Source: an uncultured Chromatiales bacterium | Lineage (GTDB): Bacteria > Bacteroidota > Ignavibacteria > SZUA-365 | DNA length: 64,000 nt | Reading direction: 5' to 3' | NCBI GenBank assembly: GCA_964371045.1 | Contig: CAYJMN010000004.1 | Coordinates: 59,794-123,793, forward strand | Shown: positions 1 through 5,735 of the stretch, in pieces | Numbering within the stretch: the first letter of the stretch is position 1 | How the letters are laid out: each line of letters opens with the position of its first letter | Made by a program: the position numbers and the translations under genes | Notes under the pieces: generated by a model | Told to the model about the DNA's origin: nothing | What the model saw: the letters and a program-made list of their open reading frames with translations, nothing else | The model's database searches: none

Positions 1-209
1 GATTCGTGGTATCAGTCTCATCCTAGTACGAAGTGCGAGAAATGAAAAGCCGCATACAGTTCCTTCATATCACTCCTGATTAATGCTGTTGCAATAGAAC
101 AACCAAAAAATGAGCTGCGGTAAGTCGATGGCATTGCCACGTTTGATGCTGTGCGAGTCTCTCGCCTGGGTGATATGCGGTTTCCATCTAACATTACTTT
201 AGCTGCTTT

Positions 210-461
210 TCATATGTCGTCCAGCGGACTGCTAGCACCTCTGCCGCCGCGGCTGAGATCGTACGTGTAGAGCAAGGTCGTTTTCACATCCTTGTGTCTA
301 GACAATTCCTGAACCATTCGGATTTCGTAGCCGGCCACCGGAAGCAGTGTCGCGAAGGAATTACGATAGGTGTGACATGTTGCCCGTTTCACCATGCCCG
401 CCTTCCCGACTGCAACGGTAACCGCTTTCTGAATGATCGATTCGTGAACTTGATACCGCAA
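210..461 (-). pseudogene. Tyrosine recombinase/integrase, C-terminal fragment only (83 aa; the catalytic-Tyr region is present, the N-terminal roughly 200 aa are missing)
   Basis: The translation ends ...HTYRNSFATLLPVAGYEIRMVQELSRHKDVKTTLLYTYDL. This matches the conserved C-terminal box of phage-type tyrosine recombinases (R-H-R-Y region, GxxxxxIQxLLGHxDxxTTxIYTH). The ORF is far too short for a full integrase, and the upstream frames (462-696) show no integrase-like continuation. Confidence 0.5.
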
Positions 462-696
462 TTCATGTCCGTTTGTCGTGAGCTTCTAGCGTAGTATATC
501 AATGAAATCTATGAAAAGGATTCTCGAATGTCAAGATATGGGAGCAAAAAATCTCCGTATGTGGAAAATATTTCCCTCGCATGCAGTTAGCCTTGTAGCC
601 TGAACCCAAATCGAAGCGCGAGGAATAGTTCTCACCGCCTACCGCCTCGCGAAAGTACGCCTCGAATATCCCATTTGAGAAGCCGTGCACATAGTT

Positions 697-2165
697 CTAC
701 TGTGTTATAAAAACTACGGTGCATGTGTTTGAGGTTTTCTTGTTTGCGGGTGGTTCCTTCGCTTACACACTGGACAACATGGGAGTCGATGAACAAGCAC
801 CGCAATGATTCTCGCACGCATCGTCGCGATCAAGGATTCAACGTAGCGCTCCCATCGCACGGGTTGCGCCCCGTGGACGGTAGGTTGCGGGTAGCACAGG
901 TGTCCGGAACGGATTCCATCGGGATTCTTCTTCTGGGGGGAAAAGGCCGCGTTCAGCGACCAGAAACGCGTATGCCGCGATGCACATGGTCGCGTGATGG
1001 TGGAACCCCCGCCACCCTCGCCCTTCGAAGTGGTTGAGCCCGATCTCGCTTTTCAATTCCTCATAATCCCGTTCGACACGCCACCGCATCATCACGACAT
1101 GGACCAATTGCCGCAAGGTGCTTCCTTTGGGAAGCGTCGCCAGCCAGAATTTGGTCGGTTCGTCGGCGCCTTCCGGCCATTCAACGAGCAGCCATTCCTC
1201 CCGCGCCACGCCTCCGCGCTCTGGGATGTGGTGCGCGCTGACGACGCGTATCGCCCAGAAACGCGATGTAAGAACGGCCGAGGACCCTTCCCGCCAACGG
1301 ATTTCCTGAAACAAGGTCTCACCGGCATCCCGCGCGAGATCAAGCACCGATACGGGCGGATGCTTCACCTTCTCTCCACGATGCGGTTGCATTCCGGGCA
1401 ACCATACGGTGGTCGACGCCCGCACACCGACCGCGTAGGTCAATCCGAGTTCGGTGAGTTGGTGCCGGAACAAACCGTCGTTGCCATAGCCCGCATCCGC
1501 GAGCACGACACCACGCGGCAGATCGCGTTCGACGAGGGATCCGATCAGACTCATCGCGATCGTGGGTTTTGTCTGGAACCAGAGGTGCTCAGGAACGCCG
1601 CATGCGCTCCGTCGCTCCGGGTCCGTTGCCCACACTTCCGGCAAGTACAATCGGAAGGCGACCGGAAGGCTCGCCTGCGTGTGTGCCACCGAGATCGTCA
1701 CCAGCACTTGGCAGTTTTCTTGTTTCCCAAAACGCCCACAGTACTGTCGGGCGACGCCAACCGAGCGCTTGCCTTTCTTTGGCAAACCGGTGTCATCGAT
1801 GATCCATGCTTCGATGGGTTCGATCGTCTCGATGATGGGGAGCGCGTAGTCAATGATGGCGTGCATGACGGAATCGTTACTCCAGGGCGCATCGGCAATA
1901 AAATGATGCATCGACTGGTGTTTCTGCCGCACATGATCCGGATCGATGCGAGCCGCCATCGGCTCGACGCTTTTGCGTTCGCCGGGCAGCAGCAAGCCGC
2001 TGCAATAGTCTCGCAACGGTTCAGCGCGATCGGCGTGGCCTATGGCGGCGGTAAGTCGATTCATGTACGCATCAAAGCGTAGTTCGGGTGTCGAAGGTAG
2101 TGGCATCGGATCTCCATGAGTGTTTTCGATGCCGTAAGATACGAAATATTTTTATAACATAGTAG
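697..2165. mobile_element. IS701-family insertion sequence (~1.47 kb) with imperfect terminal inverted repeats
   Basis: The left end CTACTGTGTTATAAAAAC (697-714) and the right end ATTTTTATAACATAGTAG (2148-2165) are reverse complements of each other, 17 of 19 positions matching. They bracket a single DDE transposase ORF. The size fits the 1.4-1.5 kb typical of IS701. I could not read a clean target-site duplication. Confidence 0.65.
838..2106 (-). CDS. IS701-family (IS4-superfamily) DDE transposase, 422 aa
   Basis: A full-length ORF. The N-terminal region ...SMHHFIADAPWSNDSVMHAI... and the overall layout (DDE catalytic core, C-terminal HHH...) are characteristic of IS701-type transposases. 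Confidence 0.85.
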   Translation of the reverse strand: MPLPSTPELRFDAYMNRLTAAIGHADRAEPLRDYCSGLLLPGERKSVEPMAARIDPDHVRQKHQSMHHFIADAPWSNDSVMHAIIDYALPIIETIEPIEAWIIDDTGLPKKGKRSVGVARQYCGRFGKQENCQVLVTISVAHTQASLPVAFRLYLPEVWATDPERRSACGVPEHLWFQTKPTIAMSLIGSLVERDLPRGVVLADAGYGNDGLFRHQLTELGLTYAVGVRASTTVWLPGMQPHRGEKVKHPPVSVLDLARDAGETLFQEIRWREGSSAVLTSRFWAIRVVSAHHIPERGGVAREEWLLVEWPEGADEPTKFWLATLPKGSTLRQLVHVVMMRWRVERDYEELKSEIGLNHFEGRGWRGFHHHATMCIAAYAFLVAERGLFPPEEESRWNPFRTPVLPATYRPRGATRAMGALR

Positions 2166-2282
2166 GAATAGCTGCAACTCATCCTGAATTCCAATTCGAG
2201 TTTCTGCTTTTCGATGCGCGTAAAGTTACTTTTTTTGCCCAGTTGTCACTCCACCTGCTTCCTTTACTCAGGCCACTCCGGC

Positions 2283-2450
2283 TTACACCCCGGCATCACG
2301 TTCCGGGTAGCTCTCATAGACATGCTCGAACACCGCCGAGCATTTCTGCTTGTAGAGCTCGGGCGTGTAGGCGCGCGGCAGACCCGAGTCAAGCGTGTCT
2401 TCGATGGTGAGCTTCAACTGTGAGCGTGCCGATGACTTCTACCGCCCGTC
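2283..2450 (-). pseudogene. C-terminal remnant (~50 codons) of a larger gene, possibly the C-terminus of a type I restriction HsdR-like protein
   Basis: The minus-strand frame opens immediately after an in-frame stop and reads KSSARSQLKLTIEDTLDSGLPRAYTPELYKQKCSAVFEHVYESYPERDAGV*. It has no start codon and no upstream continuation. The YTxELYxxKxxxVFxHVYxSY motif is, from memory, like type I R-subunit C-termini; I could not search this. Confidence 0.25.
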
Positions 2451-2604
2451 AGTGTTCATTGGCGGGCGGTATGTTTTGTGGTTGCGGTCAGTCGTTCAAG
2501 AGTCAACATACTTTTTACAGTCAGTCAAAATCGTCCATCGTTCTGATGAAAGCCCGCGTTTCCGCAGCTCAAAAGCTCAAACACGATATGATTCTTCTAC
2601 ATAA

Positions 2605-3225
2605 TTGAGACTTTTTGCGTATTGCGAGAATAAAAAACAGCCACCGAATTATTCTGTTGCCTTCTGTATTTACTTTCAGAAACTTATAGACTGGAGGAAC
2701 CAAATTATTACGCGCCGCTTGCAGATTCCAAACGAGATCGTGGAGAAAAGAATACGCCCTGGCGTCCGTTTCGAGAATTGGATTGATCCTATGCCAGGTG
2801 AGACCAGCTGGAGCACGAACCAAATGATTGGAGCCTATGAAGCGGGGCTGACCGAGGAAGTAAAAAAGGCTATGGTGGTCCTCGAAGAATGGGCGGCGGC
2901 GATTGAGAGCGAGAACATTACTAAGGCTGGCGACCATGCACAGCAGGTATTGGATATTCTGCACAAAAGAGGAATGCACCCGAAATCCGCAATTGTGAAT
3001 TCAACGCAATTCGACAATCTACGGGTTCTCATTCTTCTACCATTAGAAGAGTATGTGGGAGAGATTTTCGAAGGGATTTATATGGAGGTGAAGGAACGCG
3101 AACCAGCGTGGGAAGAGCCCAGGTATTCGATTGAATTCATGTTCACCAGCTTCGGTGACAACCTGGATGAGGGTTTGCTAAGGGCGGACGGTTATATAGT
3201 ACATCATATCTCTCTCGGGAAATGA
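2605..3225 (+). CDS. Hypothetical protein (up to 206 aa; the ORF opens at TTG, so the true start is uncertain). It sits in an AT-rich, low-GC segment
   Basis: A long ORF in a segment whose GC (about 45%) is well below the window average, so it looks foreign. Its stop overlaps the next ORF start as ATGA (GAAATGAG at 3222-3225), which suggests translational coupling. I recognise no family. Confidence 0.45.
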   Translation: MRLFAYCENKKQPPNYSVAFCIYFQKLIDWRNQIITRRLQIPNEIVEKRIRPGVRFENWIDPMPGETSWSTNQMIGAYEAGLTEEVKKAMVVLEEWAAAIESENITKAGDHAQQVLDILHKRGMHPKSAIVNSTQFDNLRVLILLPLEEYVGEIFEGIYMEVKEREPAWEEPRYSIEFMFTSFGDNLDEGLLRADGYIVHHISLGK

Positions 3226-3434
3226 GAAAAAAGCATGCCAAATACAACGAATTGCTCTGCGAGGTTTTGGCTGAGGATGGCCGTTGGGATGATTGGGTTG
3301 TAACAACTGCATTCTATTCGGCGATGCATTTTGTTGAGTTTAAACTCTTCCCAATGAGGGAGGCAGGGACCAGTTACCCGGCTTTCGAACAATATGATCA
3401 CGGCTACACTTCTATGAGCAGAAGAGCTTCCTGA
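3222..3434 (+). CDS. Hypothetical small protein (70 aa), translationally coupled to the upstream ORF
   Basis: The ATG overlaps the upstream stop (ATGA). Same AT-rich composition. The sequence MRKKHAKYNELLCEVLAEDGRWDDWVVTTAFYSAMHFVEFKLF... matches no family I recognise. Confidence 0.4.
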   Translation: MRKKHAKYNELLCEVLAEDGRWDDWVVTTAFYSAMHFVEFKLFPMREAGTSYPAFEQYDHGYTSMSRRAS

Positions 3435-3686
3435 TGAAAGGTTCCCTGCCGACGCCCGCCCACTTTCATCTAATCCCTTGACTTCCATTTTTCTTCCGTT
3501 TTTCTTTCGCGAGGATTGACATACGCGTATTTTCTTCGTACAATTTCGCGATAGATTCTACAGAAGATACTCGATGCCCCTGCTGGCCTTGCATCCGCAT
3601 ACCACGAAAAACGTGCTGTTGTGTGGATATGTAGATCGCAGAAATCCGATTTTGATGCAATGCAATAACGAAGAGAAACCTCATTT

Positions 3687-5735
3687 GTGGAGGGTACGAT
3701 GAAGAAACGAAAGATCTTTTCTGTAACGACGGGTCTTCTTTTAGTAGCCCTGTTTTCAGCGGAGGGACAGACCGTCGATTGGAGATTCGGGTTGGAATGG
3801 AATGAGGGAACGCTGCTCGGATGGAGCGATCCCATCCTTGAGCAACTTCTCGGGACATTGGAAGAACTGGGCACCGCCGGAGGCATCAATGTCAATGCCC
3901 ACGGAAGTTGGGGAGTGATGCAGAGCGGCCCTTCAGCGTCGATCAACTGGGCACAAAACGATGCTATTGTCAGGCTCTTTCAACGGTATGGTTTCTCGTT
4001 GACCTGGTATATTGCCAGCAGTGCTCCCTGGGCATTTCCCAATAAGCCCAATTGCCAACCGGATACTGTTTTGGGAGTCGTGATCTACCGGAACTGCTCC
4101 CCCGAACCCGCATTCGAATCCAACTGGATAGATTTCATCAAAGCGGTCGTCGAGCGCTACGATGGCGATGGCATGGACGATATGCCTGGTTTGAGGAAAC
4201 CGATTCAATTCTACATCCAACCAGGCGAGATCAAGTTCGGCATGACCGGCACCGGCGATGCGGAATCGGGACCGTTCTGGTTCGACAGCATCAACAACCT
4301 CCTGCATTTGCACCGGATAACGTATCAGGCCATTCACGAGGCCGATCCTACGGGCAACTCCAAGGTTGTTTCTAGCGGTGCGCTATTGTGGGACCTGTAT
4401 GCCGATTTCCCGGATTGGCCTGCGTTCGATTCCAGCGATCCCAACAGTAAAATCCTGAAACGCCTGGGTGGCGAAAACCATAAGGGGAGTACCTACGTCG
4501 CCGGGTGGGACAGTCTCAAAAAAATGCTCGACAGCTTCGGCAACGACGCCGATGGCATCGAGTGCGATTACGTGGGTTGGCACCCTCATTTTAGTTGGCG
4601 GGTGATCGATCAGGAATTTGCTCTCATCCGCGCACATGCCGGCAACAAGCCAGTGTACGTCGATGACATGTGGGCGAACCTGTACGCCCAGGGCTATGTC
4701 GCCCCCCTGCCCGGTATTCCCGGTGAGGCACAATTCCAAGCCCCGTCCAATCCGTTCGCTGGCACAGATTGGATCAAGCGGATTAACGGCGATTTTCCCA
4801 ATTCTCTTTTCCCGGGGATCGATCCCTACGCCACGCTGTATCAGAAACTGAATCAGGATGATCAGGCGGCGCTGGACTGGTACTATGCAAACGGAGCCCG
4901 GCGGTTGGTGAAATCCATCGTATCGGCTTTCGGCGAGGGTGCGGAACGTGTTTCCTTCTCCGGTACCAACGATGTACCGCGGAGCATTCTTCCCATTAGT
5001 CGCGGCTGGCCGGGCGGCTGGATCAATCTCCTCGGGACTCGCCAGGAAGATTACTTCAAGAAGCCGCAGTTTCACACGCTCAAACTGTTGATAGAAAAGC
5101 TGCATGATTTCACCGCAGTCAAGGGCGTTGCGGTGACCCACGATCCGCGCACGCGAGTCTATGAATTTGATCGCCCGGCTCGCGGTCCGGTCTATGTACT
5201 CTGGAGTGAAACCGGCGAGGCACCACCGGACCTGAACTACCGCAATTCCGGCGGCGAAACCGTAACCCTGAAAATCATTACGAATGTTTCTCAGCTCAAA
5301 TTGACCCACATCATCACCGACACGATACATACGGAACCAGAGGTGGAGATGATTTCTACGCCTACAGATAGGATCACTATACAATTGGGGTATGAGCCGA
5401 TCTTTTTGGAAGGAGCTTTCTTAACCGATGTTAAGGCCAGTCCACCCTTACTTCCATCTGCGTTCGAACTTGGTCAGAATTATCCCAACCCGTTTCATCC
5501 AGGAACGGTGATTGAATATCATTTGCCCCGGTCCTCCGAGGTGGAAATCTCCATCTTCAATCTGTGGGGGCAAAAAGTGGTCACATTGGTGGGAAGGTAT
5601 CAAACCGCTGGGACGCATACAATCATCTGGAACGGAAGAAATGAATCCGGTGTACCTGTCGCCGCCGGCATTTATCTATATCAAATGAAGGCGGGGTTGT
5701 TCGTGGCGGTAAAGAAAATGCTGGTGGCGAATTAA
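3687..5735 (+). CDS. Secreted T9SS cargo protein (682 aa) with an N-terminal signal peptide, a possible glycoside-hydrolase-like catalytic region and a C-terminal Por/T9SS sorting domain
   Basis: Signal peptide MKKRKIFSVTTGLLLVALFSAEGQ. The C-terminus LGQNYPNPFHPGTVIEYHLPRSSEVEISIFNLWGQKVVTLVGRYQTAGTHTIIWNG...GIYLYQM is a canonical T9SS type-A CTD. The middle region is TIM-barrel-hydrolase-like, but I could not assign a family. Confidence 0.8.
   Translation: MEGTMKKRKIFSVTTGLLLVALFSAEGQTVDWRFGLEWNEGTLLGWSDPILEQLLGTLEELGTAGGINVNAHGSWGVMQSGPSASINWAQNDAIVRLFQRYGFSLTWYIASSAPWAFPNKPNCQPDTVLGVVIYRNCSPEPAFESNWIDFIKAVVERYDGDGMDDMPGLRKPIQFYIQPGEIKFGMTGTGDAESGPFWFDSINNLLHLHRITYQAIHEADPTGNSKVVSSGALLWDLYADFPDWPAFDSSDPNSKILKRLGGENHKGSTYVAGWDSLKKMLDSFGNDADGIECDYVGWHPHFSWRVIDQEFALIRAHAGNKPVYVDDMWANLYAQGYVAPLPGIPGEAQFQAPSNPFAGTDWIKRINGDFPNSLFPGIDPYATLYQKLNQDDQAALDWYYANGARRLVKSIVSAFGEGAERVSFSGTNDVPRSILPISRGWPGGWINLLGTRQEDYFKKPQFHTLKLLIEKLHDFTAVKGVAVTHDPRTRVYEFDRPARGPVYVLWSETGEAPPDLNYRNSGGETVTLKIITNVSQLKLTHIITDTIHTEPEVEMISTPTDRITIQLGYEPIFLEGAFLTDVKASPPLLPSAFELGQNYPNPFHPGTVIEYHLPRSSEVEISIFNLWGQKVVTLVGRYQTAGTHTIIWNGRNESGVPVAAGIYLYQMKAGLFVAVKKMLVAN

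Follow-up and report, generated by a model that had tools for sequence, protein, structure and literature searches.

Among the described systems closest to the gene pair considered here are the HEPN-MNT modules (HepT/MntA), small two-gene operons in which the HEPN gene lies downstream of, and overlaps, the gene of a minimal nucleotidyltransferase (MNT). Anantharaman et al. (2013, PMC3710099) described HEPN proteins that depart from the usual catalytic motif, Rx4-6H. In the AF0298 clade of HEPN-T proteins (PDB entry 2hsb) and in AbiV, the Arg of this motif is kept while its His is lost, and a second conserved His is found N-terminally, which was proposed to form an alternative RNase active site. 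For the MtlR-type HEPN proteins, a non-catalytic RNA-binding or regulatory role has been proposed. Table 1 of PMC3710099 also contains the entry “HEPN-T (Cpin_6617)”, which is centred in Bacteroidetes and lacks a conserved Rx4-6H, and for which fusions with an alpha/beta module (“dyad of ferredoxin”) are reported. Here, we analyse a pair of overlapping genes, A and B, from a stretch of 64,000 nucleotides (“the window”; contig CAYJMN010000004.1, positions 59,794 to 123,793) of an uncultured bacterium. In its first 3.5 kb, the window contains an integrase remnant, an insertion sequence (IS) of the IS701 family, the remnant of an HsdR tail, and the two plus-strand genes A and B. What is new at this locus is a HEPN two-gene module with an undescribed, non-MNT partner family represented by A; no published description of the A-B pair was found in the literature.

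The original prediction, made from the DNA letters without database searches, had pointed to two coupled open reading frames (ORFs), 2605-3225 and 3222-3434, as a candidate two-gene system. Both frames exist, and the start of B overlaps the stop of A by ATGA, but the gene limits have changed: A starts later and B represents a truncated gene. Gene A (2719-3225, plus strand, 168 aa) most likely begins at TTG 2719 rather than at 2605, the beginning of the longest ORF, because its homologues align from this position and the gene call in contig L009 (also 168 aa) uses the same start. The leader 5' of gene A (2600-2718, plus strand), where the DNA becomes alignable with the homologous locus L001 from about position 2600, presumably carries the operon promoter and the 5' untranslated region. 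On its plus strand, this leader shows no sigma-70-like promoter, the scan not extending to Bacteroidota-type promoters.

Only two close relatives of gene A, P0002 and P0003 (169 aa each), are present in an index of 5.8 billion proteins; the identity is 59% to the former and 46-48% to the latter (46% in the alignment, 48% by BLASTP). An exhaustive profile search at E<=1e-3 extended family A to 214 representative clusters (50% identity), nearly all of 150-170 aa. A single-sequence search with the 70-aa product of window B recovered only itself, and family B was found via a profile of the full-length partners taken from the loci that hold relatives of A. This profile collected at least 89 proteins (clusters at 90% identity) of 124-146 aa, almost all of which are unnamed.

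The scan of one genome per species gave 69 B loci, almost all in Bacteroidota and a few in Ignavibacteria, the carrier genera including Pedobacter, Mucilaginibacter, Dyadobacter, Flavobacterium, Chryseolinea, Tannerella, and Sphingobacterium. A full-length pair is present, for instance, in Dyadobacter pollutisoli CP112998 (L013; A at 4519-5001, B at 5001-5390). When profiles of both families were used, A was found directly upstream of B and on the same strand at 71 of 73 loci, the exceptions being a contig edge and a disrupted locus; the same order occurs in all three loci detected in the viral contigs of IMG/VR. Between the A stop and the B start, the spacing varies from -41 nt (overlap) to +24 nt (gap), with a mode of -4, which is the ATGA arrangement seen in the window. 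The co-occurrence of the two genes, which had been suggested as a check on their being a system, is therefore clearly observed, and A-B is almost certainly a conserved unit with a toxin-antitoxin-like layout. One locus, L072:3602-4369 from the Chitinophagaceae bacterium PMP191F, has a single reading frame for A and B together (...NADGYFLKYEK followed by ACEHLLVGQDLSDWVVTTAFY...), which lacks about the first nine residues of B and about the first 24 profile positions of A; it may represent either a natural fusion or a product of decay. Two further B loci, L017 and L029 (= L015), are located in metagenome-assembled genomes (MAGs) labelled Saccharibacteria and Chromatiales, outside the usual range of Bacteroidota and Ignavibacteria, and may reflect either a binning error or a real transfer.

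The surroundings of the pair are not conserved. The nearest flanking ORFs at the other loci (n = 122) matched 142 Pfam families, none of which occurs at more than four loci. Broad occurrence of the two genes in a syntenic housekeeping context, which had been named as the observation that would speak against a mobile two-gene system, was thus not seen, although housekeeping neighbours do occur. Only a few of the flanking ORFs encode transposases, integrases, or defence proteins (HamB, AbiEi, and DarT). The idea that the pair belongs to a “defence island” is borne out in part: a restriction remnant does accompany it in the window, but elsewhere the module is not usually found in such islands.

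The absence of recognisable homology, asserted originally for both proteins, does not hold for B. The Pfam HEPN model (PF05168) was matched by nine of the 83 B members scanned singly (best E 7.6e-6), with no match for the B proteins of the window, L001, or L005; among the 89 homologues, the label “HEPN domain-containing” is given to one in UniRef, and a precomputed PF05168 match exists for one. The AlphaFold2 (AF2) model of a full-length relative, P0005, was obtained with a pLDDT (predicted local distance difference test score) of 96.6, and its seven best Foldseek matches in PDB are all HEPN proteins (2hsb, 2q00, 1wol, 1ufb, 1o3u, and sacsin; probability 0.96-1.0, template modelling (TM) score 0.55-0.66). 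Further HEPN chains, from solved toxin-antitoxin complexes of the HEPN-MNT type (7bxo_D, 8xeh), rank lower in this list. The comparison of the B profile with PDB sequences gave no HEPN protein, only a spurious match to NEMO (E 0.6), and the search with P0079 was likewise negative or spurious. Taken by the Pfam members and the predicted fold, family B is a divergent branch of the HEPN superfamily.

The conserved residues of family B support a comparison with the atypical HEPN clades. Its invariant or near-invariant positions include H71, R100, and Y101; Arg100 is kept in at least 90% of members within the consensus A-R-Y-x-N-Y (ARYxNY). The canonical Rx4-6H is not found, since no His follows Arg100, while the invariant His71 is located upstream, at the start of the preceding helix. 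B thus resembles AF0298 and AbiV in keeping Arg100, lacking the His of Rx4-6H, and possessing an upstream His, and 2hsb is its best structural match (TM 0.63, probability 1.0). It differs from the AF0298-like HEPN-T proteins (PF05168) in its marginal sequence similarity to them, which is confined to the weak matches of the nine members mentioned above and is absent for window B and its closest relatives, and in its genomic partner.

Family A gave no such assignment. Among 107 members, no consistent Pfam match was found, and none of them matched a nucleotidyltransferase (NTP_transf) model; the family showed no PHROGs match at the significance limit and no consistent match to PDB sequences. For the window proteins A and B themselves, searches in Pfam, NCBIfam, and PADLOC gave no match, and those in PHROGs none at the significance limit. 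The match of the A profile to influenza HA2 in PDB (E about 0.05) was rejected as a coiled-coil artefact. The AF2 model of gene A (pLDDT 90.9) consists of a less ordered N-terminus, a single helix of 50 residues, and a compact alpha/beta domain with the predicted order helix, strand, strand, helix, helix, strand, which resembles a type II KH fold. The structural comparison suggested originally for both proteins thus led to HEPN folds for the relative of B, but for A it gave only weak matches in PDB, covering about 87 residues, to ribosomal protein uS3 and its KH domain (E>=0.027). Against viral models, Foldseek returned a few uncharacterised proteins and two proteins with a Pol-beta nucleotidyltransferase domain (probability 0.5-0.66, E>0.1). 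No MNT structure occurs among the PDB matches of A, and inspection of the alignment revealed no G[GS]...DxD motif. Gene A is therefore not a recognisable MNT nucleotidyltransferase, and it has no recognisable DNA-binding domain.

The window itself contains only a broken copy of the module. Gene B (3222-3434, plus strand) is composed of codons 1-58 of the family (3222-3395), after which come 12 codons unrelated to it and then a stop, as judged from tblastn, DNA alignment, and profile comparison. The full-length B partners of the homologous loci (125-130 aa) match it in tblastn only at residues 1-58/60, with 81% and 47% identity; the family profile covers only positions 1-64, and the DNA homology between the window and L001 extends from about 2600 to about 3398, where it ends abruptly. 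The remaining approximately 70 codons of B are present in no frame anywhere in the 64-kb window. Both the invariant His71 and the conserved Arg100 belong to the deleted part, and position 8, which is His in at least 90% of the family, is Tyr in window B. Very probably, window B is a HEPN fragment. The candidate system recognised in the original prediction is thus a real, conserved, and coupled pair, but its window copy is not intact: because B is devoid of the C-terminal 70 or so residues, the copy cannot act as a pair. Gene A apparently remains intact as an orphan partner left after the loss of B. Just past the breakpoint of B homology (about 3398), an 8-bp inverted repeat GATGAAAG ... CTTTCATC can be read from the plus strand at 3433-3470 (fold energy -10.1 kcal/mol, no T-tail), and it could mark the edge of the sequence that replaced the 3' half of B.

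When compared with the described systems, the A-B module shares with HepT/MntA the small two-gene operon with the HEPN gene downstream of its overlapping partner, the HEPN fold of that downstream protein, and a patchy, mobile occurrence without synteny. It differs in its partner, which is not a minimal nucleotidyltransferase, and in the lack of the canonical Rx4-6H in B. It also shares the features of toxin-antitoxin modules in general: the genes are small, co-oriented, overlapping or tightly spaced, and paired, with a patchy distribution and a variable neighbourhood. The entry HEPN-T (Cpin_6617) is similar in its range, its motif loss, and its alpha/beta fusion, which echoes the A-B fusion of L072, although the predicted structure of A contains a single alpha/beta domain and a long helix rather than two ferredoxin domains. 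The A-B family may correspond to this entry, the comparison being made by description only.

On balance, we suppose that A-B is a toxin-antitoxin-like or abortive-infection-like HEPN module with B as the effector and A as its partner, a reading that we hold to be somewhat better than even. It is suggested by the genes being small, co-translated, always paired, patchily distributed, free of synteny, and often pseudogenised, with a HEPN protein encoded downstream. Under this scheme, B would be an RNA-targeting effector with a non-canonical His71/Arg100 active site, toxic to the cell, and A, by means of its long helix and its small alpha/beta domain of KH-like type, would bind B and restrain or direct it, thereby neutralising the toxicity. 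A would thus take the place held by the MNT nucleotidyltransferase in the classical HEPN-MNT pairs. In the window genome, a deletion of about 210 bp from the 3' part of B has removed both candidate catalytic residues, which would leave the effector dead and A an orphan.

The decay of the module in other genomes bears on this scheme. B is broken beside an intact A in L060, L070, L075, and the window, and both genes are broken in two genomes. Several observations weigh against a conflict function. The first is the reverse situation, with A frameshifted and B intact in L021, L047, and possibly L018 and L061, which is unexpected if B is a potent toxin; most of these sequences, however, are MAG contigs and may contain errors. 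Many neighbours of A-B are housekeeping genes, for example, those for MurB, KdpA, and histidinol dehydrogenase. None of 72,556 plasmids contains the module, and it is rare in viral contigs (three loci). No PADLOC-DB v2 match was obtained for window A and B or for ten full-length relatives, and a defence role is without direct support. Without the canonical Rx4-6H, B might bind RNA in a non-catalytic manner. A has neither DNA-binding nor nucleotidyltransferase features, and none of its fold matches reaches significance (E>=0.027).

These observations are partly those expected if A-B were a non-toxic accessory complex for RNA binding or processing, in which B is an inactive HEPN protein, A is its KH-like RNA-binding partner, and the loss in the window is neutral decay. 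The missing motif, the common housekeeping neighbours, the failure to match PADLOC, and the disruption of A beside an intact B all favour such a heterocomplex, as does the statement of PMC3710099 that HEPN domains without the motif may act non-catalytically. The same can be said of the A-B fusion in L072 and of the module GC, which follows that of the host and suggests a long residence. However, an accessory complex does not easily account for a patchy distribution without conserved synteny, for the repeated pseudogenisation of both genes, or for the tight two-gene layout typical of toxin-antitoxin modules, and the invariant His and conserved Arg are found where an alternative HEPN active site has been proposed. 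We regard this explanation as the main alternative to the toxin-antitoxin-like reading, but an unlikely one.

A reversal of roles, in which A would act as the toxic effector and B, the HEPN protein, as an antitoxin or regulator, is improbable. It would profit from A being uncharacterised and without an assigned fold, from the window having kept A and lost B (the surviving A being then inactive or tolerated), and from the regulatory role thought to be played by HEPN domains fused to nucleotidyltransferases (PMC3710099). However, in the characterised two-gene systems HEPN is the toxin (PMC3710099), and the loss of an antitoxin beside an intact toxin should be lethal, yet an intact A with a broken B occurs at no fewer than four loci, namely the three listed above and the window. 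The gene order points in the same direction. In type II toxin-antitoxin modules, the upstream gene is usually the antitoxin, and in our pair this position belongs to A.

The module is located in a decayed setting, for which the best explanation is that the first 3.5 kb of the window are what erosion has left of the right-hand edge of an island of low GC that was acquired horizontally. Its pieces are best explained as an IntI-like recombinase stub and an HsdR tail stub, both dead, a live and selfish IS701 element, and one copy of the conserved A-B operon; apart from the operon, these pieces are all ordinary. Beyond the left end of the window, the low-GC tract goes on for at least 6 kb, as seen in contig L006 of the same population (42-47% GC in most 1-kb blocks), and therefore the islet represents the right-hand end of a larger island. 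The sequence L006:1-6800 encodes a full-length HsdR (973 aa, plus strand), RadC, a pentapeptide-repeat protein, a radical-SAM protein, and four ORFs without a Pfam match.

The GC content of the pair itself requires more caution. It is 46.5% against the window mean of 55.8%, and the pair does constitute the lowest 800-bp stretch of the window, but the drop is nine points and not the 15 given at first. The A-B module lies 3-11 GC points under its flanks in all seven hosts compared (L001, L005, L013, L015, L018, L032, and the window, 2719-3434), the host GC ranging from 30 to 64%. The dip hence looks largely intrinsic to the family and mimics a signature of horizontal transfer. With such a deficit in every host compared, low GC is a poor indicator of recent transfer. 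The horizontally acquired island proposed in the original prediction can be retained as a decayed mobile and restriction islet at the end of a low-GC island, with the GC dip of the pair adding little to this view.

The other components had been identified correctly, even where confidence was low. The IS701-family element (about 690-2172, minus strand) is intact: its transposase gene (838-2106, minus strand, 422 aa) matches NF033540 with E 7e-123 and 410.5 bits against a cut-off of 150, and Pfam DDE_5 with E 2.7e-76. Its terminal inverted repeats of 28 nt (686-713 and 2149-2176) are 82% complementary. The palindromic TGCA is present at both outer ends (686-689 and 2173-2176) and represents either a 4-bp target duplication, with the element then limited to 690-2172, or part of the repeats, with limits of 686-2176 and no duplication; if it is a target duplication, the insertion was simple. 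With its full-length DDE transposase scoring well over the curated cut-off and its terminal inverted repeats, the element is a typical member of the family; apart from the ambiguity of the exact ends and of the duplication, nothing unusual was noted in it. It occurs once in the window, and the related contigs L008, L009, L011, and L012 start within it, which is consistent with a multicopy repeat.

The HsdR-like remnant, which had been suggested with low confidence at 2283-2450, was confirmed by similarity search and is now extended to 2283-2468 (minus strand), about 56 codons with one in-frame stop. In the tblastn comparison with plasmids, all five matches are annotated as “type I restriction endonuclease subunit R” (E 1e-4 to 1e-2), and the plasmid match falls on the last 54 or so codons, at the 3' end, of a 1061-aa HsdR. 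Across the in-frame stop, window positions 2468-2301 align with residues 995-1051 of this protein (40% identity, E 9e-8). No further HsdR sequence is found near the remnant, so that only the tail is present and the nuclease and helicase domains are not; the PDB sequence search with the stub was negative or spurious. The full-length 973-aa HsdR of the island is a separate gene located about 9 kb to the left of the stub on the other strand, and the two may have been separated by an old inversion, a possibility that agrees with their orientation and length. Of the 973-aa HsdR gene, only the final 79 nt are visible, and these gave no alignment with the Picosynechococcus HsdR, the sole type I R query used. 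Within the remnant, about 250 bp 5' of gene A, a strong hairpin is found on the plus strand (2440-2471) with a 14-bp stem, a 4-nt loop, and a T-rich tail; the number of terminator-like sites in the region is not above that in shuffled sequence.

The integrase fragment described originally at 210-461 (minus strand) was likewise confirmed, its 83-codon ORF matching Phage_integrase PF00589 (E 1.6e-9). The similarity reaches seven codons past the ORF start, to about 482, and then ends, so that the stub comprises the C-terminal 89 or so codons (210-482, minus strand) of an integron-type (IntI-like) tyrosine recombinase. Its best model is the integron integrase TIGR02249 (E 1e-24), as compared with 1e-9 to 1e-10 for XerC. 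A complete IntI integrase is not present, since the match is limited to positions 226-314 of the 315 in the model: the stub retains the HxxR and Tyr motifs, but the N-terminal 225 or so residues are gone, and the stub is non-functional. The 65 residues encoded by 499-690 match nothing. Truncation of the integrase by the IS701 insertion is unlikely because the similarity ends at about 482, 200 bp before the end of the element.

This remnant makes it conceivable that A-B is or was an integron gene cassette captured beside the integrase, the more so as the stub is best matched by an integron-integrase model and is oriented divergently to A-B, as intI is to its cassettes; but we consider such an origin extremely improbable and reject it because the attC-like sites do not exceed chance (two weak candidates in the 16 kb spanning the region, neither adjoining A-B, against 0-4 in 20 shuffles), while the L001 pair ends in an ordinary hairpin and T-run (as read from the alignment), integrases account for only two of the 122 flanking ORFs at other loci, and the HsdR stub, on the strand opposite to the pair, separates the integrase from it.

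Beyond these components, the region contains no Rfam family and no tRNA, and neither promoter nor terminator sites are overrepresented in it. On the right side of the islet, a near-consensus sigma-70-like promoter (TTGACA, 17 nt, TACAAT; 11 of 12 positions) lies on the plus strand at 3516-3544, 5' of gene 3687-5735, the 682-aa product of which has a type IX secretion C-terminal sorting domain. In L009:6080-11924, from the same population, the genes located 3' of this gene for a type IX secretion-sorted protein are entirely different, namely those for radical SAM/SPASM proteins, a methyltransferase, and a glycosyltransferase, which indicates a strain-level rearrangement directly to the right of the islet.

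The window copy of the module is a dead remnant and matters little in itself. It points, however, to a conserved and unannotated module with about 214 A clusters and at least 89 B clusters, which are nearly always paired. The presented analysis also advises caution in reading composition, because such modules may owe their low GC to the family itself and not to a transfer in the recent past. The toxin-antitoxin and defence repertoires of Bacteroidota are poorly charted, and most of the work on HEPN has been devoted to MNT-paired or CRISPR-associated proteins. Tentatively, and at slightly less than even confidence, we suggest that family A constitutes a new class of HEPN partners, small proteins with a helix and a KH-like part, that replaces the MNT as an antitoxin, a sensor, or an RNA-specificity subunit, and that A-B represents an undescribed toxin-antitoxin or abortive-infection family of Bacteroidota and Ignavibacteria using the His71/Arg100 site. 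A tractable non-MNT pair of this kind would allow testing of the alternative HEPN active site and of the control of HEPN effectors without AMPylation.

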